DNA from: a virus
Taxonomy: Duplodnaviria; Heunggongvirae; Uroviricota; Caudoviricetes
Reading direction: 5' to 3' (one strand)
IMG/VR virus record: IMGVR_UViG_2541047843_000008
Length of the DNA stretch: 40,690 nt
Part shown: in pieces, positions 3,367 to 35,359 of the stretch
Numbering within the stretch: the first letter of the stretch is position 1
Layout: each line of letters begins with the position of its first letter
Translations under genes and position numbers: made by a program
The notes under the pieces: model-generated
Database searches by the model: none
What the model saw: only the letters and a program-made list of their open reading frames with translations
What the model was told of the DNA's origin: nothing

Positions 3367-3395
3367 TGCCCGCAATATTTTGCGGGCTTTTTTTT
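3367..3395 (+). terminator. Rho-independent terminator, plus-strand orientation only
   Basis: Stem GCCCGCAA / TTGCGGGC followed by 8 T on the plus strand; abuts the tailspike stop. Confidence 0.5.
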
Positions 3396-6300
3396 AACGT
3401 TCTTCCAGAGACTGAACCCGCTCTTTTATCTTATCCATTTCTCTGCGCTGCCATGCTGCCTCGATATAGAATAAGAGATCAGGTCTGACCCCCCATCTAG
3501 ATCCTGCTGGCGTTATTTCAACGCGCTCAATGATGTCTTCCATTACCATCACTGGATTATCATCCTCATCAACAATGATGCTCCCGTCATTATCAGTCAG
3601 CGGCATTTCCCTTTGGCCAGTAATGACGTCATCATATACTGCGGGATAATCGTCATAGCAAAGAAAGGCATAGCGGCATGTTGTGCTTTCTTCTTCCATG
3701 AGTCCGTGAGAAATAAGAACATCACGAAGTTGCTGCGCGATTACACCATGATGTATCCTCGCCCCTTCTTCCCCCTTTATAGCGACAGCGTTCAGCCATT
3801 TATAAGCGATATACCTGACGTCACCCCAGGCATCCAGCAATGCTTCGTCAGGAGAGACAGGCTCTGTCTTTAATGTTCCGTCACTGGTAACCACAGGATT
3901 GGAGCCAAGATAAACTGTCGAGAACCTGTTTCCCGGACCACCAAGAGCATTTACATTATCAAGATAAGGTTTAACATCTCCGTTCTCAAAAAGATGTTCG
4001 AGTGCGTTATATACCGCGCGACGTGGAGTACTGCTTCCGGAACCATGCAACGTTATCATTGCACCATCTGCTGAAGACGTTGTTTCACCGCCGCTAACGA
4101 TTAATCTCTGAGCGGTAACATCATCAGACGGTACTTTCTTCGCAATAATGGCGTAATTACCCTCAAGTTTGACTTCCGCGCGAACTTGTCCTGATGTACC
4201 TGCATGGACAGTCAGTGACTGGACGGCAACATCATCTGTGAAATCAACGGGTACAGGAACCGTCCTCACGCCTGACGTCGACATAAAAGTAGGAAGCGTT
4301 CTGTTAGGAGTGGCTCCGTAGACAAAATCCCTTGAAACAAATTCTTCCTGTTTAATTTTCACCCTGAAACAATACAAATCAGCCGGGTGACCATCGTGAA
4401 CATAAGGATATTTTCTGTTGTTATCCCCTATGCTCCATGGGTTTAGAAAGTCTTCCCCACCGAAAATGTAGTACAGCCAGTTGTCTTTGATACAAACTGA
4501 ACCAACACCAACCGCAGAGTTAACTATTCCGCCCTGATAAATCTGATCAGTAACATTAACCCACTCTACATTATCCAGACTCCACTCATTGACGTTAACT
4601 CTGGTCATAAATGTTCTTGGATAATTTCCTGCATAACGGTTATCAGGTTCTCCTCCTTCCCACTCACCAAATGCGCGCTCACTGCCAAAAATAATCAGCT
4701 CATCGCCAACTTTGGCAAAAGGAAGGTTTGAGTGATGAACATTATTTGGGAAGCGAAGAGAATTCCATGATGTACCTAAATCAGAGCTTCTGTGCAATGA
4801 ACTACCGGGTTGAGTACTTAATGTCCCCCTGGTCGTCAGATACAGAATGCCATCATAATATTTTACACATGGCTCAGATGCATTCGCCTCATATTCTACA
4901 GGTATGCGTCTGCGAACAAAGCTACCAGGAGAACCGAAAGCATCAGAGAAATAGAGTATCCCAAGCTCGCGTGGACCAATATCACCATTATGGTAGCCAA
5001 CAGCAAAACTGTTATCGCTAATCGTCGCAAAACTGTGAATCTCAGTAACAGGAGTGCTTCCGTCAACAAAAGAAGGAATAGTTCCAAGACTGGTTTTTCT
5101 CCATGGTGACGAGTGAAATGATGTGCCAAAACTCCAGTATCTACCCTCGTTATTCTGATCCACATCCTGGGTATTTTGCGTCGTAACTGTAAAGGTATTT
5201 TTATCAATAACAGTAGTCACCGTCATATTCCCGGTAACACCTGTAACACCAGAGTTTGAGAAGTTGACAAAATCACCAGCAAATAATCCGTGATCAGTAA
5301 TGCGAATATAAGCGACTTGCTGATTTGCTGCTTTCGTTATACCACCATAAACGCGAAGGCTGCGACTCATTGGGCGATCCCACAACTCTGCAACCTGCAG
5401 TTTATTTCCTCTCACGGTCCGCGTCTCAATTACAGCAAAAAGGCGATTTCTGACAACCCCCATACTCATGCAGTGATAGTTAACTGTGGGATAGTTTTCA
5501 TGTAAATCTGTAAGCCATTCCGGCGTTGTCCAGGTCTTCCCGTCATCTCCTGAGCGAACCCATGCAACATGGAGGTTATTTACACCATGGCGGTCTCCAG
5601 CCATAAAAGGCGCATAGATGACATTGTCATATACAAACGTTTTATCCTGCGTCCAGGCGTTGTACCACGGTGTATCTGTAATTTTAAATAACTCTCCCTG
5701 GATAAAATCTTCAGAAGCATAAAAAAGAGGCTGGCCCGGTATTCTCTCAAATAAAAAACGAGCATTTTTAAATCGACTGACATCCGGAAGAGTTGATACT
5801 TTAAAAGTAAGCCCTAATCCGTCAATTTTATAACCTGGAGATGAGGCTTCAAGGCACGCGCTTATTGCAGTGGAATCGTCATTTATACCATCACCAACAG
5901 CTCCAAAATCTTTGGGGCTAATAGCATCACGCATTTTATCCTGGAACGTTCGGTACACAGCCCCAGAACCATACTGAATAAACCAACCAAAACCACCAAC
6001 AACCCCGGCGATTGCAGCATCGACATAATTACGCATTGAGCGATTATTTACAGCGTCCTGCTCAAGTGATGGATCTGCAAGGTTAGAAATTTTGTTTTGC
6101 TTTGCATCGTAATATTTTGCAAGCAAAGATGGTTTCATCAATGCACGTCTGAACCACCCAAAACATTGCTGGATCAGCATCGTCAGGTAGTCAAAAGCAT
6201 CTTCATGCACTTCGGGGAAAAATTTTCCCTGATTGCGAAGGTCTGTCTCCTGCACTACATCAAGCACACGATCTATCGTAATTCGCCATCCAGCAGCAAG

Positions 6301-6513
6301 CGGAGACGGAAGAACAACAGAACCGCCACTATAAGTGCCCGCCCCAGTTACCGTATAACCGGTATCCAGAACCAATTCTGTTACGTTCCCGTTCAGGTCA
6401 GACACCTGAACAACCAGGTCGGATTTTTTGAAAATACGGAAGGTATACGGAAATGATGTCGTAACGCCGTTACCTGTGTATTCGTTGTGGTCAACTTCGG
6501 TTGAGACCGTCAT
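3394..6513 (-). CDS. Tailspike/tail fibre: T7 gp17-like N-terminal anchor, depolymerase domain with sialidase-type Asp-boxes (candidate endosialidase), C-terminal intramolecular chaperone (S74-like) domain
   Basis: N-terminal ~120 aa with gp17-like pattern; DFGAVGDGINDDS; Asp-boxes SGDDGKTW and SSDLGTSW; C-terminal VTSDGTLKTEP...HHGVIAQQ chaperone-like region. Confidence 0.85.
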   Translation of the reverse strand: MTVSTEVDHNEYTGNGVTTSFPYTFRIFKKSDLVVQVSDLNGNVTELVLDTGYTVTGAGTYSGGSVVLPSPLAAGWRITIDRVLDVVQETDLRNQGKFFPEVHEDAFDYLTMLIQQCFGWFRRALMKPSLLAKYYDAKQNKISNLADPSLEQDAVNNRSMRNYVDAAIAGVVGGFGWFIQYGSGAVYRTFQDKMRDAISPKDFGAVGDGINDDSTAISACLEASSPGYKIDGLGLTFKVSTLPDVSRFKNARFLFERIPGQPLFYASEDFIQGELFKITDTPWYNAWTQDKTFVYDNVIYAPFMAGDRHGVNNLHVAWVRSGDDGKTWTTPEWLTDLHENYPTVNYHCMSMGVVRNRLFAVIETRTVRGNKLQVAELWDRPMSRSLRVYGGITKAANQQVAYIRITDHGLFAGDFVNFSNSGVTGVTGNMTVTTVIDKNTFTVTTQNTQDVDQNNEGRYWSFGTSFHSSPWRKTSLGTIPSFVDGSTPVTEIHSFATISDNSFAVGYHNGDIGPRELGILYFSDAFGSPGSFVRRRIPVEYEANASEPCVKYYDGILYLTTRGTLSTQPGSSLHRSSDLGTSWNSLRFPNNVHHSNLPFAKVGDELIIFGSERAFGEWEGGEPDNRYAGNYPRTFMTRVNVNEWSLDNVEWVNVTDQIYQGGIVNSAVGVGSVCIKDNWLYYIFGGEDFLNPWSIGDNNRKYPYVHDGHPADLYCFRVKIKQEEFVSRDFVYGATPNRTLPTFMSTSGVRTVPVPVDFTDDVAVQSLTVHAGTSGQVRAEVKLEGNYAIIAKKVPSDDVTAQRLIVSGGETTSSADGAMITLHGSGSSTPRRAVYNALEHLFENGDVKPYLDNVNALGGPGNRFSTVYLGSNPVVTSDGTLKTEPVSPDEALLDAWGDVRYIAYKWLNAVAIKGEEGARIHHGVIAQQLRDVLISHGLMEEESTTCRYAFLCYDDYPAVYDDVITGQREMPLTDNDGSIIVDEDDNPVMVMEDIIERVEITPAGSRWGVRPDLLFYIEAAWQRREMDKIKERVQSLEER

Positions 6514-6617
6514 GTTAAATCTCCAGATAGTCGCAGCACCCGTTGCGCCGCATATCTGGTTATTCTATTACCTGAAAAACCACATATGGATAGATAACCC
6601 ATAAATACGAAAAGATA

Positions 6618-6632
6618 TTACCTTTCAGGTGA
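6618..6632. promoter_or_regulatory. Operator-like palindrome variant TTACCTTTCAGGTGA
   Basis: One-mismatch copy of the recurring TTACCT-N3-AGGTAA palindrome, between the tailspike start and a plus-strand moron. Confidence 0.4.
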
Positions 6633-6669
6633 TTTGCAAAACGTGCTGGATAGCAAACAAATTATTTGA

Positions 6670-6689
6670 TACTGTATATTTATACAGTT
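6670..6689. promoter_or_regulatory. LexA (SOS) box upstream of the small antirepressor-like gene
   Basis: TACTGTATATTTATACAGTT fits CTGT-N8-ACAG with AT-rich spacer; 20-40 nt upstream of the ATG candidates at 6695 and 6710. Confidence 0.6.
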
Positions 6690-6709
6690 ATTGCATGGAG
6701 AAGATTAAG

Positions 6710-6967
6710 ATGCAGCAGTATCACTATCCACTGGAAGACGGATTTACCGAAAGGATTCACACGCCGGGAGGCGTCAGGTCACTGGTGGAGGGATCGCACT
6801 TGATGAAATTACTCCGGGATCTCGATAAGGATGGATTTAATGTCGATGGCCCACTTGCCGAACTGACTGCACTGATTAACTACGTCACCAGCTCACAGAT
6901 GTCTATGCAGGATCTGCAAACACATCTCGACTATTGTGCCGAACAATTACGAAAACAAACCAGATAA
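6710..6967 (+). CDS. Small antirepressor-like protein: stand-alone paralog of the C-terminal domain of the neighbouring antirepressor (Tum-like candidate); alternative start 6695
   Basis: About 80 aa align with the C-terminus of the 7285..7941 product (e.g. [36 protein letters not shown]); GGAG 9 nt upstream of ATG. Confidence 0.5.
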   Translation: MQQYHYPLEDGFTERIHTPGGVRSLVEGSHLMKLLRDLDKDGFNVDGPLAELTALINYVTSSQMSMQDLQTHLDYCAEQLRKQTR

Positions 6968-6998
6968 GGTTTGCAATTACCAAGTGGAGTGCTTATAT

Positions 6999-7013
6999 TT
7001 ACCTTTTCGGTAA
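6999..7013. promoter_or_regulatory. Operator-like palindrome TTACCTTTTCGGTAA
   Basis: Copy of recurring TTACC-N5-GGTAA palindrome downstream of the small ant-like gene. Confidence 0.45.
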
Positions 7014-7104
7014 ATTTACATCGCACTCCTCTTGTGCCATAGTAATCGGGCACTGGCAAAATCCAGTGCCGGGATTGGTCTCCCGGATTACTAAGTGGCG
7101 CATA

Positions 7105-7127
7105 CCACGCCAGACGTGGTTTTTTTA
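7105..7127 (+). terminator. Rho-independent terminator after the small antirepressor-like gene
   Basis: Stem CCACG / CGTGG with 5-nt loop followed by 8 T. Confidence 0.5.
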
Positions 7128-7284
7128 TGCGTATAGCACAGTCATGCCAGAATTATGGTGGGCTGAATGGGGGTCCGAAAGGACGCCGGTACCACTTAGG
7201 CCGGTAAGACCAACTCCGTTCAGTTCACCACCATCTGATTGGTCTCAGCGGTGGTGATGTAATTCGCTAAGTGGAGACGCCATC

Positions 7285-7941
7285 ATGAACGCTCAACTCA
7301 TCCCCGTATTCAACGGCACTATATCTAACGAAACAGCCCTACTTTGTAATGCCCGCGATCTGCACGCTTTTTTAGGTGTTAAAAAGGTGTTTGCAGCATG
7401 GATTACAAATCGCATATCAGAATACGAATTCATTGAAAATCAAGACTATATTTTGCTTTCCAATTTGGGAAAGCAAACATCTGGTAGAGGCGGCCACAAC
7501 CGCAAAGAGTACCACCTCACCCTTGATACAGCCAAAGAGCTGGCGATGGTCGAGCGTAACGAAAAAGGTCGCCAGGTGCGACGCTACTTCATTGAATGCG
7601 AGAAACGTTTAAGACAACAAGAAACAAAAGTGGAGAAGGTCTTGTCAGGCTTCATGCCCGCCATAATGGAGGCGATCAAGCTGGAAGACAAAAAAGAATA
7701 CAGCGCCCCACTGAAGCCCGGCTACCGCAGCCTGATTCATTCGCCGTCTGGTGTTCTCGGCCTGACGGAGAACTCACTGCTGATGAATCTGCTGAACCAG
7801 TTACAGGACGACGGGCACGACGTATCGGGCGCGGCGGCGGAGCTGACCACCATGTTCTGCTACATCGTCGGTGTGAGCAAATGCCTGCGTGATATCCAGA
7901 CCCACGCGGAGTACATCAACGACAAGGCAGGGTTCTTCTGA
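7285..7941 (+). CDS. Antirepressor-like protein (N-terminal Ant-type domain plus C-terminal domain shared with 6710..6967)
   Basis: N-terminus resembles phage antirepressor N-terminal domains as recalled; SD GGAGA upstream; C-terminal paralogy seen directly. Confidence 0.6.
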
Positions 7942-8013: not shown

Positions 8014-8028
8014 TTACCTTAAAGGTAA
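8014..8028. promoter_or_regulatory. Operator palindrome TTACCTTAAAGGTAA upstream of the two-gene cassette
   Basis: Perfect TTACCT-N3-AGGTAA palindrome 43 nt upstream of the ATG at 8071. Confidence 0.5.
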
Positions 8029-8070: not shown

Positions 8071-8397
8071 ATGACAAAACTTGGATTCGTGATGAGAGGT
8101 CCGGTAAGAAGCGGAACTCATGCAAAGCGTAGCAAGAGTCGTATTTTTACTGGTAAGGTTGTAGCACGTAAATCAGCTATTGGCTCGTTCAATAGTGAAA
8201 ATGCGGCATTGCGCCATATTTTTATCAGCACAAAGCCAAGAGCATCCGCTGATGTGCATACAATGTCTATTCCTATCACAAAGAATATCAAGCGGATAAA
8301 AAAGCTCTCATCTGCAGAATCAAAAGAGATATCTTTCCGCCAGCTTAACTCATTAGAAACGCATATGAAGGAAGAGGAATTCGATGTTTTTGAGTGA
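8071..8397 (+). CDS. Hypothetical basic protein, first gene of unassigned two-gene cassette
   Basis: ATG with GGAG SD; K/R/S-rich N-terminus; AT-rich moron-like composition. Confidence 0.5.
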   Translation: MTKLGFVMRGPVRSGTHAKRSKSRIFTGKVVARKSAIGSFNSENAALRHIFISTKPRASADVHTMSIPITKNIKRIKKLSSAESKEISFRQLNSLETHMKEEEFDVFE

Positions 8398-8896
8398 GTA
8401 TAGCGGGAAGGTTATACCTACTGGTGAGTTTAAAACTGATGACTTTCTGATTTCGCTAAAAGATGCTTTTAAACAACACTGGCGTCATGGTCATCATCCT
8501 GATCTGGGAAAAGATACTCTTTTTGAAAGACCAGACGAAGTATTAGGCTTCCATCTCAGAAAGGTTCATGTCAATATTGGTGAATATGCATCATATTCAT
8601 ACTCATGTACTGAACAGTGTTGGGATGAGTGGTCATATGGATTGATTGATGAACAAGGAAATTACAGGCCAAAACCAACCAGTAACGCATATCTCATATA
8701 TGCAGTCAATGAAATAAGAGATGCAGCCTTACTAGCTTATTGGGACCCGCCCGCACACACCAAAGCTAACGCAAAAGTTTGGATGGATTCCGTATTGAAT
8801 TTCACAAAATTATTTCATGAACGAACGAATACAGCTCCACTTAGTAGAAATGTTTATCCGTGGGATTATTCGTACAAATCCAAAAAGCCTGCATAG
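8384..8896 (+). CDS. Hypothetical protein, second gene of cassette (His-rich segment HWRHGHHPD)
   Basis: ORF overlaps upstream gene end by 14 nt (translational coupling); no recognisable family. Confidence 0.5.
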   Translation: MFLSEYSGKVIPTGEFKTDDFLISLKDAFKQHWRHGHHPDLGKDTLFERPDEVLGFHLRKVHVNIGEYASYSYSCTEQCWDEWSYGLIDEQGNYRPKPTSNAYLIYAVNEIRDAALLAYWDPPAHTKANAKVWMDSVLNFTKLFHERTNTAPLSRNVYPWDYSYKSKKPA

Positions 8897-9663: not shown

Positions 9664-12138
9664 TTATTGCGGAGTGACATCCTGTGGTCGCCACCAGTAT
9701 GTCTGGTTAAACTCTTTCTTCGAACGTTGCTCCATTTTACGCAAATAACCTGGTGAAAAATACTCCTGCATCTGGTTAAAGATCATGTGATCGAGAGCCG
9801 CCTTTAAGTACCAGAGATTCGCACCTGGCATCAGACCTTTCCCCAGCTTAACCAGATCACCACCAGTCTGCTCATTCTTCCCTTCCACAGCATTTAACGG
9901 TATGCCCTGAGCAATCTTCACTACGTCATCAACCAGACCAGCTACCGGGCCAAGCATCGACGCCAGCGCGCCGCTTCCGTACCTAGTGTGATCTGACAAT
10001 AAAAAGTCACCGTAAAGGCCAAGACCACCACCTTTCAGTAGAGCACCAAGCCAAAATTTAGCAGCATCTTCTCCTGTCATCTCGCGAGGATTACGACCAG
10101 ACGCAAGGTCGTTAAGTTGCTGCGACAAAGCGCCAAGAATGGTCGTACTGGCAATAAACGTCGCAATATATGCCGCACGCCCACCAGCCGACGGCATACC
10201 CATAGCGCGTGACCAGTGACGCATAACCACCGAGATAGGGAACGATTTAAACAGGAAAACACTTCTCGTTAATTCACCTTTCCATGTTCCACGCTGAATA
10301 CCAGAACCGGTTATCAGTTGCTCACGTGCACCCGGTGTAATAACAGCCATATCAACTTCTTCAGTTACGGCACCGAGCAGTTTACGCATTGCCTCAAATT
10401 TCACGCGTTCAGGCTCACCAAGATGTTTAACTGCTGAATCAGGGATACGCATAATGCTTTCCGGTGTCAGCATCGTATTATTACCGTTCCCCCAGTCCTC
10501 CTGTTGCGCCAGCTTCCATACGCTCCAGTCTGTGTCAGTAATCCCTTTGCTTTTCAGGATACGAAAATCAGAATCATCGAGGCTACGAAGGTCTGGTGTC
10601 CGTGACACTACTTCTCCCAGGCTTCCCATCATGGTTACGCCATAGGCGCGCTTGTGCGCATCTGACCATGCTGTAAGCCCACTGGCACGCATTACCGCCG
10701 TTGCAGCCCAACGAGACACAGACGGCCCCATATTATCCATCGCCCAGCGGTTAACGCTGCCAAGTAGAGATTCCATCGCCAGACCAGCGCGGCGCGCCCG
10801 CGCAAGTTCTGTACGGTTCGTTGGGTCCATAGCTTCAAGCTGGTTGCGGAATAACTGGTTCATTGGAAGGTTGGTAACCTTCGCAGACAGATACATGGTT
10901 CCAAGATCAGAGAACGATGACAGCAACGCGGATCCGAGTCTGCTGGCAACCAGCCAGTTGCGGATATTGTCAGACCATCGCGCGATGTGCGGATTCGCTA
11001 CAGGCTGTGTCTTTCCGGAAATAAAGTTGTACAGATTCTCTGTGTTGTTCGCCAGCCGCTCGACTTTACCGGTTTTACTCGGGTTAGCTGTTGCCGTTTC
11101 TGCCTTCACCTGATCAAGAAGAGAGCGGAAAACATGATCGGGGTTTGGGCCATATGTTTCCACCAGTGCAATATCTTTACTGATACCTTCCAGGTGACCG
11201 ACCATGATTTCCCATAGAGAGCGATCGCCATAAAGTTGCTGATATTGCAGATAGGAATCTGCATCTTTGAAATGTATCTGTCGTGATGCATTACCCCGGT
11301 TAGCACGTGCGCCGGAAATTCGCATTCCGGTATCAGTAAGCTTATTCAGCCCACCAGTAGCGATCGTGTTATAAGCCTCTCCAAGAAATGCAGACAACTC
11401 GGCATCGTTCATCAGTTGTCCATCGACTCGGGTATAATATTTGCGATCCAGCTTACCTATAACATCGCTAACCCACTTATCCTTTGATACCGCCCCAACC
11501 TTTTCCATAGAATGATGTTGAGGGAGCCCCCAGTTTTCGAGATAGCCAATGTCCCCACCAGCATCATTAAACCGGCGGCGCAGTAGCTCTGTCACTTCTC
11601 TCCACGCCTTAGCACCTTTTCTTGCTTTAGCATTGCCAGTATTTTGCCCTCGCATTTCATATACCAGGTCACGCACGCCAGCTTCATCTTCAAACAGGCC
11701 AAAAAAGCGAGGATCAACTGCTTCAAATGCCTCCTGCAATTGACTCAATGCATAATCACGAGTGGCTTTTGTTCTGGATTCAACAGAGAGGAAATTCGAT
11801 TTACCGTCTGCATTAAAAGCAATAGTACGGTTAAGAGCGCCAAGTTTCCCATCAGCCCCTTGATAGCTATTGATAAATTTATCCAATCTCTGACGTGCGG
11901 CTATAGTGAGGGCCACACGACGTTTCTTTAATGCCGCTTCTCGCTGTAATTCTTCAGATGCCAATTGTGCTGCTCGATATAGCCGCTCTGATTCGGAAAG
12001 TTGTCGCCACGACATCGGGTCATCACGAGCAATGGAGCGCATATTTCGATAAATGCGGTCTTCAATGTTCTGTATTTCTCGCGCCGTTAACATGCGCTGC
12101 GCCGCCTGCTGGACCGCTTGTATACATTCCTGTCTCAT
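9664..12138 (-). CDS. Internal virion/ejection protein (large, T7 gp15/gp16 position)
   Basis: 824 aa, translationally coupled in a run of large genes between the tail tubular genes and the tailspike. Confidence 0.65.
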   Translation of the reverse strand: MRQECIQAVQQAAQRMLTAREIQNIEDRIYRNMRSIARDDPMSWRQLSESERLYRAAQLASEELQREAALKKRRVALTIAARQRLDKFINSYQGADGKLGALNRTIAFNADGKSNFLSVESRTKATRDYALSQLQEAFEAVDPRFFGLFEDEAGVRDLVYEMRGQNTGNAKARKGAKAWREVTELLRRRFNDAGGDIGYLENWGLPQHHSMEKVGAVSKDKWVSDVIGKLDRKYYTRVDGQLMNDAELSAFLGEAYNTIATGGLNKLTDTGMRISGARANRGNASRQIHFKDADSYLQYQQLYGDRSLWEIMVGHLEGISKDIALVETYGPNPDHVFRSLLDQVKAETATANPSKTGKVERLANNTENLYNFISGKTQPVANPHIARWSDNIRNWLVASRLGSALLSSFSDLGTMYLSAKVTNLPMNQLFRNQLEAMDPTNRTELARARRAGLAMESLLGSVNRWAMDNMGPSVSRWAATAVMRASGLTAWSDAHKRAYGVTMMGSLGEVVSRTPDLRSLDDSDFRILKSKGITDTDWSVWKLAQQEDWGNGNNTMLTPESIMRIPDSAVKHLGEPERVKFEAMRKLLGAVTEEVDMAVITPGAREQLITGSGIQRGTWKGELTRSVFLFKSFPISVVMRHWSRAMGMPSAGGRAAYIATFIASTTILGALSQQLNDLASGRNPREMTGEDAAKFWLGALLKGGGLGLYGDFLLSDHTRYGSGALASMLGPVAGLVDDVVKIAQGIPLNAVEGKNEQTGGDLVKLGKGLMPGANLWYLKAALDHMIFNQMQEYFSPGYLRKMEQRSKKEFNQTYWWRPQDVTPQ

Positions 12139-26069: not shown

Positions 26070-26146
26070 GTGGCATTAGCTCAGTCGGACAGAGCAACCG
26101 CCTTCTAAGCGGTTGGTCGCAGGTTCGAATCCTGCATGCCACGCCA
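26070..26146 (+). tRNA. tRNA-Arg (anticodon UCU, reads AGA), phage-encoded
   Basis: Cloverleaf read by hand: acceptor GTGGCAT/ATGCCAC, D-arm GCTC..GAGC, anticodon loop CUUCUAA, T-arm GCAGGTTCGAATCCTGC, discriminator G, CCA end. Confidence 0.9.
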
Positions 26147-34656: not shown

Positions 34657-34720
34657 TCACCCATAAGGTAACAAAAATCAAGGATAGTTACCTATGAGGT
34701 GCATTTACCTGTTGGGTAAT
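34657..34720. promoter_or_regulatory. Immunity-region operator cluster: three TTACC-N5-GGTAA-type palindromes between the divergent Cro-like and repressor genes
   Basis: TCACCCATAAGGTAA, TTACCTATGAGGTGC, TTACCTGTTGGGTAA at about 34657-34671, 34688-34702, 34706-34720. Confidence 0.55.
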
Positions 34721-34774: not shown

Positions 34775-35359
34775 ATGAAAAGTATCCAGGACGTCCGCAG
34801 GCAAAATCTCAACGACTTGATCGACCGTGAATTCAATGGTGTTCAGACGCGGATGGCAGAAAAACTTGGAACTCAGGCAAATCTGGTAAACCGCTGGGCT
34901 CTTGGCAAGAAGGTTATCGGCGACCAGGTTGCACGAAAAATTGAAGCTGCCGCCAATAAACCCCGTAACTGGCTTGATATTGATCGTTCGCTTTCTCAGG
35001 AGGGTTTTCAGCCTGTCGGCCCGAGCGATATAGGTCAGCTGGCGGCTCACAATCTGGAACGCTGGATGAGCGAAAGCCGCGACCTTTCAACACAGGGAAA
35101 ACTTCACCGCGCATCCGGCGTCGCCCAGGTGACAATCAGCCGCCTGTTAAACAATGAGGTCAGCGTTTCCATTTCCACCCTGGAGAATGTTGCATCCGCA
35201 TTCGGGCGTCACGGATATGAACTACTGATTCACCCGCACGACCCTGCGACTATCAACTATGACCGCTCACGCTACGCATTGTTACCCGAAACCGAGAAAG
35301 CAAAGATCGAAAGTTACATTGAATTTGTCATCAACCAGAACGAAAAAAGCAAACAATAA
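34775..35359 (+). CDS. Repressor candidate with two XRE-type HTH domains and no LexA-like autocleavage domain
   Basis: HTH-like segments VQTRMAEKLGTQANLVNRWALGKK and LHRASGVAQVTISRLLNNEVSVSISTLENVASAFG; own terminator downstream. Confidence 0.6.
   Translation: MKSIQDVRRQNLNDLIDREFNGVQTRMAEKLGTQANLVNRWALGKKVIGDQVARKIEAAANKPRNWLDIDRSLSQEGFQPVGPSDIGQLAAHNLERWMSESRDLSTQGKLHRASGVAQVTISRLLNNEVSVSISTLENVASAFGRHGYELLIHPHDPATINYDRSRYALLPETEKAKIESYIEFVINQNEKSKQ

Follow-up and report, generated by a model that had tools for sequence, protein, structure and literature searches.

Why does an E. coli phage carry two antirepressor genes side by side, and how might each of them be controlled? The question is raised by a viral genome of 40,690 nucleotides (IMG/VR record IMGVR_UViG_2541047843_000008, Caudoviricetes), which is referred to here as the window, where a gene for an 85-aa antirepressor (Ant; 6710..6967, plus strand) is followed, across a leader at 6968-7284, by a gene for a 218-aa protein (7285..7941, plus strand). 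The window originates from an epsilon15-like (Uetakevirus) E. coli phage or prophage, and over the 1.56-kb region around both ant genes the identity is 98.4% with phage phiv142-3 and 99.1% with a prophage carried by E. coli EC19. Our sequence comparisons make it probable that this is the immI-like region of an epsilon15-like prophage, with two antirepressor genes that share one Rep-binding module. We also consider it likely that a single repressor, Rep, is the target of both a short Ant gated by LexA and a long antirepressor gated by a pair of leader RNAs of the C4 and IsrK types.

The relationship between the two proteins was examined by pairwise alignment. The sequence-only reading that preceded this analysis had placed the 6710..6967 product colinearly on the last ~80 aa of the 7285..7941 product, and this was confirmed by BLASTP of the 6710-6964 and 7285-7938 products, which returned 31/74 identities (42%) without gaps (E=6e-16), pairing residues 2-75 of the short protein with residues 137-210 of the long one and including the motifs listed in that reading. 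Both proteins match PHROG 450 (9e-48 for the short and 5.7e-36 for the long protein), and chain E of PDB 5D50 ('Anti-repressor protein'; Kim et al., 2016) is matched by the short protein over its full length (E=4e-47) and by residues 137-213 of the long protein. The homology of the long-protein C-domain is established, because its sequence matches this solved chain at E=8e-14. No curated family for the Ant domain was found in Pfam or NCBIfam, and it is covered only by PHROG 450, which is labelled 'unknown function'. Identities amount to 58-63% among short genes across genera, 54% among C-domains across genera and about 40% between short gene and C-domain, while 18 alignment columns are invariant across both paralog clades (short Ant and long C-domain). 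The two clades are old, and the ratio of nonsynonymous to synonymous substitution rates (dN/dS) reveals purifying selection on both: it lies at 0.04-0.17 in the short gene, and the C-domain gives 0.20-0.28 across genera. In two Klebsiella phages (L007 and L008), the short Ants bear the 11-residue motif of the long-copy C-domain in place of DGFNVDGPLAE, which could reflect gene conversion between the paralogs or the ancestral state.

The short protein is an ortholog of the Ant of Salmonella phage SPC32H, with 88% identity by tblastn in addition to the PDB, PHROG and dN/dS results given above. Its gene is preceded by a perfect LexA box of the form CTGT-N8-ACAG, CTGTATATTTATACAG (6672..6687), that can be aligned to the SPC32H sequence around the LexA box of ant, and no such box was found for the long gene in 6968-7284. 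In SPC32H, Ant is controlled by LexA and inactivates the non-cleavable repressor Rep, as a passage of PMC7380047 relates with reference to Kim & Ryu (2013), and the Ant tetramer splits the Rep tetramer into dimers (PMC9638917). The proposal that the short copy is the SOS-responsive trigger is well supported, because it is orthologous to the LexA-controlled SPC32H Ant, and the conserved perfect LexA box speaks for it as well. Rep, the presumed common target of both antirepressors, is encoded in the window at 34775..35359 (plus strand; PDB 5D50 chain A, 'Repressor', E=3.5e-42) and is flanked by TTACC-N5-GGTAA sites. A motif search returned the same palindrome with one mismatch, TTACC-N5-GGTGA, as a presumed Rep operator upstream of the short ant promoter (6618..6632), and SPC32H contains an orthologous perfect operator-like site at the same spacing from the LexA box (54.5 bp centre to centre).

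The genomic setting also recalls SPC32H. The two-ant region is flanked by a tailspike gene (3394-6513, minus strand) and by a large gene of the virion or ejection type (9664-12138, minus strand), and the characterised ant of SPC32H occupies the equivalent place beside the tailspike gene. The window shares with SPC32H the orthologous ant, the LexA box, the upstream TTACC-N5-GGTAA motif, this location and a homologous Rep, and differs by adding a second Ant-domain protein under predicted RNA control. A further difference from the SPC32H/epsilon15 system is that Rep has diverged far more than Ant: the Rep common to ZX5, phiV10 and phiv142-3 is only 42% identical to epsilon15 Rep (PMC9782041), whereas the short Ant is 84-88% identical between the E. 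coli and Salmonella phages, and the operator motif is the same in both. The short gene is also comparable to tum of phage 186 and to gfoA/gfhA of the Gifsy prophages, which share with it a LexA box, a small protein and a non-cleavable repressor. The abstract of Kim and Ryu reportedly terms SPC32H Ant structurally distinct. The Ant of these Salmonella prophages has been called homologous to Tum (PMC7380047).

What, then, lies in front of the long gene? The sequence-only reading had noted an operator palindrome, an 8-bp inverted repeat, a terminator at about 7105-7127 and a second inverted repeat just before the start codon, and had stated that each copy has upstream signals of its own. All of these signals are present at the coordinates given there, and the two genes indeed have separate ones, a LexA box in front of the short gene and, for the long gene, a promoter-like site with an extended -10 (7015-7043); however, the four leader signals are not independent of each other but belong to one C4/IsrK module. 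An IsrK-like small RNA (sRNA; c4 a1b1 element) is predicted at 7050..7126 on the plus strand (Rfam RF01394, 67.7 bits against a gathering score of 50), in agreement with a terminator scan and the predicted fold. Its hairpin 1 (7050-7069) is the inverted repeat GGCACTGG-N6-CCAGTGCC at 7049-7070, its hairpin 2 presents the word a1 (TTGGTCT, 7075-7081), the word b1 (CTAAGTGG, 7091-7098) follows, and an intrinsic terminator with a stem at 7104-7120 and a T7 run to 7127 closes the element. Downstream of it, a C4-type antisense RNA is predicted at 7151..7235 on the plus strand (Rfam RF01695, matched over its full length 1-87 with 61.2 bits, the gathering score being 45), in which, according to fold and covariation, b' (CCACTTAG, 7192-7199) sits in a hairpin loop and a' (AGACCAA, 7207-7213) in a multiloop. 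Folded alone, C4 adopts the Rfam structure (-41.2 kcal/mol, z=-4.8), with a long closing stem and CCA directly after it. Among Proteobacteria and phages, both the C4 and the c4-a1b1 motif are known to occur widely (PMC2864571).

The second inverted repeat is likewise a part of this module, as its CACCACC (7226-7232) forms the 3' arm of the stem that closes C4. In the minimum free energy (MFE) fold of the whole leader (7050-7300, z=-4.6), a1 pairs with a' and b1 with b' in cis, and CACCACC pairs across 17 nt with GGTGGTG (7250-7256), forming an alternative hairpin (7226..7256, plus strand) that excludes the C4 closing stem and holds the word a2 (TTGGTCT, 7239-7245) in its loop; the GTGGTG is invariant in the 37 leader variants that we collected. 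The word b2 (CTAAGTGG, 7267-7274), as read from the sequence, overlaps the Shine-Dalgarno sequence GGAG (7273-7276) of the long gene 8 nt before its ATG at 7285, and the overlap is the same in all leader variants. No leader open reading frame (ORF) is conserved in frame or length across the 37 variants. The AUG equivalent to that of Gifsy-1 orf45, at 7155, opens an ORF of only 3 codons, and among the variants orf45 may be missing altogether or reach up to 53 aa, and its frame shifts; between the end of C4 and the ATG there are only 49 nt, without an icd-type ORF. A leader peptide (orf45, icd or 'Ash') was rejected as a functional element in the window, since no leader ORF is conserved.

The strongest support for this reading of the leader comes from its relatives, which were gathered from GenBank phages, IMG/VR (80 loci) and bacterial genomes. 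The leader is present at 76 of 90 loci, giving the 37 distinct sequences, both RNAs (isrK and C4) are found at every related locus that has the long antirepressor, and the same layout occurs in prophages of Escherichia, Enterobacter, Klebsiella and Citrobacter. SPC32H, the epsilon15-type phages and BUCT554 have the short gene alone, without leader or long copy. An unbiased search for words that occur both upstream and downstream of C4 and are reverse-complemented within it returned exactly a and b in every leader. There are four a-types (AGACCAA, ACGCCAA, GTCTCAA and GTGCAAA) and four b-types (CCACTTAG, CCTTTTAG, CCTTTGTAG and CTACTAG), which are found in ten combinations among the 37 leaders, the upstream and downstream words always being matched to C4. 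In all 10 haplotype classes b2 is the reverse complement of b', and the one recurrent difference in b1 is a G.U wobble. One such three-place 7-mer was obtained in 18 of 20000 shuffles, and the window has two. Co-variation of the a- and b-types at all three sites across the leaders argues strongly, on comparative grounds, that the three-way pairing is under selection. Similar leaders were detected in 251 phage records, among them Stx phages, APSE-2 and one P1-sized (95-kb) phage, and sequence related to the two-ant region was detected in 867 of 5426 complete E. coli genomes, many of these matches covering the shared N-domain only.

The palindrome at the head of the leader, TTACCTTTTCGGTAA (6999..7013), is presumed to be a Rep operator, and its centre lies 44 bp upstream of the predicted IsrK 5' end. 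With up to one mismatch, TTACC-N5-GGTAA occurs at 13 sites in the window against 0.56 expected, a count reached in 0 of 100 shuffles, and SPC32H has 18 sites against 0.68 expected. In both genomes the motif is concentrated between rep and cro and immediately downstream of rep, with one site upstream of the short ant, and the leader site is centred at -44 in 75 of the 76 leaders and at -41 in the remaining one. Motif statistics and placement suggest that TTACC-N5-GGTAA is most likely the Rep operator, an analog of Op51 of P1. Adjacent to the palindrome, two promoter-like sites were found on the plus strand by consensus scans. Site B (TTTACA-N17-TGcCATAGT, 7015..7043), which has the extended -10, predicts a start near 7050 that coincides with position 1 of the Rfam isrK model, and it is kept in most related leaders examined, phiV10 being without the TTTACA -35. 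Site A (TTGCAA-N17-TATATT, 6971..6999), whose -10 abuts the operator, is putative and was found by the consensus scan only. The operator sits inside a longer inverted repeat, GGAGTGC...GCACTCC (6986-7030, RNA fold z=-4.0), which may serve the short gene as a terminator or else represent an extended operator, and in phiV10 (L002, ~3465-3505) this repeat is a perfect 18+5+18 palindrome that takes the place of the TTTACA -35.

The long protein (7285..7941) consists of an AntA domain (residues 22-92, 7348-7560; Pfam AntA, 4e-26), a linker and the Ant-like C-domain (residues 136-218, 7690-7938), and it matches PHROG 377, 'anti-repressor Ant' (2.8e-66). Its ORF is intact in 73 of 75 loci with C-domains 95-100% identical, and the N-domains are variable and heavily recombined: relatives have at the N-terminus either AntA, in three variants, or Bro-N, in at least five, and the domain junction falls exactly at the start of short Ant, YSAPLKPGY. 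A third fusion, of P22_AR_N with the Ant-like C-domain (Ant-C), adjoins a true sar RNA in phage TL-2011b. Among phage records the C-domain was found in 32 only, all of them epsilon15-like and all with an SPC32H-type Rep. This confinement, together with the joining to three unrelated N-domains, fits a Rep-specificity module. Over-expression of the ZX5 homolog, whose C-domain is 97.6% identical, reduced lysogens from 10^9 to 10^6, that is ~1000-fold, and lowered rep transcription (PMC9782041). The same paper annotates only the long protein as an anti-repressor, regards Bro-N and AntA domains as thought to bind DNA, and does not mention LexA or antisense RNA. Binding of Rep and disruption of its tetramer are known from SPC32H alone, and the ZX5 result is indirect in this respect. 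Taken with the sequence evidence, the long protein most likely inactivates the same Rep as the short Ant.

A protein database search with the Ant alignment gave 302 matches, the best 120 of which were all short Ant proteins, with Enterobacterales as hosts, and a profile scan of genome contigs with the C-domain alignment detected 3 loci, in Citrobacter, Klebsiella and a Caulobacteraceae metagenome-assembled genome (a 34-residue match). The first ~107 codons of the long gene (7281-7605, AntA) share ~91% DNA identity with antirepressor genes of Stx-converting lambdoid phages and the rest does not, pointing to recent N-domain exchange between phage groups. TL-2011b (L005) encodes a protein of 314 aa at 5972-6916 (minus strand) with a P22_AR_N domain and a C-terminus near-identical to the C-domain of the window, and Rfam detects sar at 6918-6985; this phage has three Ant-domain genes under three types of control, the C4 module included. 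In two further loci (L010 and L024), a C4 leader of b-type CTAGTAG precedes a protein of 168 aa that has neither an Ant-like domain nor a match in Pfam. As this cargo lacks the Ant domain, the cassette can apparently drive other cargo.

These elements would fit together as follows. LexA would keep the 85-aa Ant off until DNA damage, upon which Ant would be made and the Rep tetramer disassembled. The promoter beside the presumed Rep operator would transcribe the leader, and some transcripts would end at the intrinsic terminator to give an IsrK-like sRNA bearing a1 and b1, while read-through transcripts would carry C4 with a' and b' complementary to a1/b1 and a2/b2. As in the P1/P7 type, RNase P would release C4 from the leader transcript, and C4 would act in trans. 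C4 from the resident prophage would block translation of the long antirepressor, because b2 overlaps its Shine-Dalgarno sequence, and IsrK could titrate C4 and relieve the block, because it carries the same target words. The long protein would be made when C4 is absent, outnumbered or of another class, as in an infection without matching C4 or during an IsrK burst, and would act on the same Rep through its C-domain. In this scheme, we infer that translation is blocked, that C4 is titrated and that the long protein binds Rep, as well as whether Rep acts positively or negatively on the leader promoter.

The proposed organization resembles the immI region of P1 and P7 (c4-icd-ant), in which a C4 of the same Rfam family is co-transcribed in the antirepressor leader, a' and b' are complementary to upstream a1/b1 and to downstream a2/b2 over a ribosome-binding site, and the main repressor has an operator at the leader promoter, of which the window holds a presumed counterpart. 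Between P1 and P7 the C4 specificity classes differ though the main repressor is the same. The window differs from P1/P7 in that it has no icd, that b2 covers the antirepressor's own Shine-Dalgarno sequence ~50 nt after C4, that a1 and b1 are packaged in a terminated sRNA, that the antirepressor is an AntA and Ant-C fusion rather than P1 Ant, and that the module resides in a 40-kb integrating podovirus rather than in a plasmid prophage. P1 Ant is regulated by C1, by the antisense RNA C4 and by Icd, according to a passage of PMC8201110 (citing Citron & Schuster, 1990). Satellite P4 is comparable in that its CI RNA, a processed leader RNA, pairs with complementary sequences up- and downstream (seqA/seqC), and SeqA has been named as a structural homolog of IsrK (Hershko-Shalev et al., PMC4825925), but the outcome in P4 is premature transcription termination of the replication genes, and no antirepressor is involved.

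The isrK-orf45 (STnc1160)-anrP locus of Gifsy-1 has an IsrK with terminator, C4, a2, GGTGGTGA and b2 over the GGAGG of anrP, like the window. The compensated pairs G28A/C162U and G31A/C159U have been shown experimentally there (Hershko-Shalev et al., 2016, PMC4825925). We note that G28:C162 and G31:C159 are a1:a' pairs, the window equivalents at the same numbering being G7077:C7211 and C7080:G7208 (a flipped pair), and that the whole-leader fold of the window forms the same IsrK helix b-I (a1:a'). The Gifsy-1 'orf45' starts at the ATG of the C4 stem 5' arm, where the window has only 3 codons. The a/b words of Gifsy-1 are different (TTGGCGT / TCACCG), and AnrP is an ORF6N protein without an Ant-like C-domain. 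The STnc1160/orf45 locus was not framed as a C4 system in PMC4825925, and the present comparison would tie the Gifsy-1 IsrK work to the older C4 literature, as the verified pairs are a1:a' and 'orf45' overlaps the C4 RNA.

Several observations weigh against the two-antirepressor scheme. In P1 and Gifsy-1, icd and orf45 are needed for the expression of ant and anrP, respectively, and no conserved counterpart is found here, so that the mode of coupling must differ. Mutations of a1 in cis raise basal translation in Gifsy-1, which a pure 'IsrK sponge' does not predict (PMC4825925). The c4-a1b1 model RF03163, at 7037-7089, falls short of its gathering score (39.9 against 46.7 bits). The operator directly adjoins the -35 hexamer without overlapping it, and from this position, centred at -44, Rep could repress or activate. 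Finally, Ant acts as a tetramer, so that the conserved C-domain residues could serve oligomerisation instead of contact with Rep.

Another explanation is that the leader works as described for Gifsy-1: a cis switch would silence the mRNA, IsrK would act in trans to open the orf45 ribosome-binding site, to which the antirepressor is coupled, and C4 would have no role in trans. This mode has experimental support in Gifsy-1 (PMC4825925), and the window has the same RNA families, the a1:a' helix and an MFE fold that pairs a1:a' and b1:b' in cis, like 'structure A'. We nevertheless consider it unlikely here, as orf45 has 3 codons in the window and is unconserved across the 37 leader variants, b2 covers the antirepressor's own Shine-Dalgarno sequence in the window and in Gifsy-1 alike, and a2/b2 co-vary with C4, although a switch working purely in cis through a1/b1 has no need of this. 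Moreover, in Gifsy-1 (L094, 34131-34316) the double mutants G28A+C162U and G31A+C159U gave 224 and 327 units versus 4, the cis helix being restored and the silence not (PMC4825925, Table 1D); this is expected if the a' of C4 must also pair with the unmutated a2. We likewise regard as improbable a view in which the long protein is no Rep antirepressor and its C-domain only oligomerises, either forming tetramers of a DNA-binding N-domain or mixing with short Ant to modulate or antagonise it. SPC32H Ant is a tetramer (PMC9638917), Bro-N and AntA are presumed DNA-binding domains (PMC9782041), and the 18 paralog-invariant residues could belong to a Rep or an oligomer interface. However, over-expression of the ZX5 homolog moved the phage away from lysogeny and lowered rep transcription (PMC9782041), and a C-domain that occurs, within the phage collection, only together with SPC32H-type Rep, and on three unrelated N-domains, fits a module directed at Rep.

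The sequence-only reading had suggested attenuation or antisense control of the long gene with P22 sar/ant as the comparator. Its general idea holds in the form of a predicted C4/IsrK leader with terminator, and the comparator does not. P22 immI shares with the window its position as a secondary immunity region beside the tailspike gene and an antirepressor that is silenced in the lysogen partly by a small RNA, as is predicted for the window, but sar, unlike C4, is a convergent cis-antisense RNA. The sar model (RF00262) had no match in the window at gathering or E<=1 thresholds, although it does detect sar in TL-2011b; no convergent antisense promoter and no P22_AR_N, P22_AR_C, Mnt or Arc signatures were found in the window, and the long protein has AntA only. 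A true sar does adjoin the P22_AR_N and Ant-C fusion of a relative, TL-2011b, yet a convergent sar with Mnt/Arc-type operators governing the long gene of the window is hardly credible, and sar-type control was rejected, as there is no sar match and C4/IsrK accounts for all leader elements. It is very unlikely, too, that the long copy is a decaying mosaic remnant without function. The N-domains are heavily recombined and the phiV10 copy is frameshifted inside the C-domain (L002, 4213-4418, annotated as two genes, p23 and p22), but the ORF is intact at 73 of 75 loci, the C-domain is nearly invariant with dN/dS of 0.20-0.28 across genera, and the layout is kept in four host genera.

While every component belongs to a described family or known kind, no description of the pairing of two Ant-domain proteins, or of a modular C-domain, was found in the literature searched. 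We tentatively propose, as a possibility that falls somewhat short of an even chance, that one Rep-specific 'warhead' domain has come under several circuits in one lineage, namely LexA, C4/IsrK (with AntA or Bro-N) and, in some relatives, sar (with P22_AR_N), and that C4 forms a second, fast-diversifying immunity layer with P1/P7-type heteroimmunity and IsrK as an anti-antisense sponge. ZX5, phiV10 and phiv142-3 have an identical Rep (PMC9782041) and belong to different C4 a/b classes, that of phiV10 being ACGCCAA/CCTTTTAG, and from this combination P1/P7-like heteroimmunity is predicted. If this is true, a superinfecting phage of another C4 class would express the long antirepressor, defeat the resident Rep and induce the prophage, which suggests why phages with the same repressor could overcome one another's immunity. 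In phiV10-like prophages of E. coli, the region annotated as 'putative anti-immunity protein' is probably a complete P1-style immI cassette beside an SPC32H-type SOS antirepressor, and such prophages may have two induction routes, one responding to DNA damage and one gated by RNA. The ~80-aa Ant fold would also represent a portable repressor-specificity module, which may aid in annotating Bro-N, AntA and P22_AR_N 'antirepressors' with uncharacterised C-termini.

Some minor observations concern the rest of the window. Unlike the Gifsy-1 locus, the window has no AntQ-type antiterminator gene immediately upstream; short ant and the tailspike gene are its neighbours there. Ten further TTACC-N5-GGTAA sites lie outside immI (25733, 28880/28898, 32362/32424, 34320, 34657/34705 and 35417/35479), often paired about 18-62 bp apart, with a 2-mismatch site at 34689, and their distribution resembles that of SPC32H in suggesting a regulon of the presumed Rep operator across the whole genome. 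Inside the phage genome, a tRNA gene (73.3 bits) is located at 26070-26143, and SPC32H has a tRNA-Arg at a comparable place. Besides, a third perfect site, TTACCTTAAAGGTAA (8014-8028), precedes two overlapping ORFs in 8071-8896 (108 aa, and 170 aa from 8384). The RefSeq homologs of the 170-aa ORF are named YafO-family type II toxin, its Pfam YafO match being weak (E=9.5e-4, below cut-off), and the two ORFs may constitute a Rep-controlled, toxin-antitoxin-like moron.

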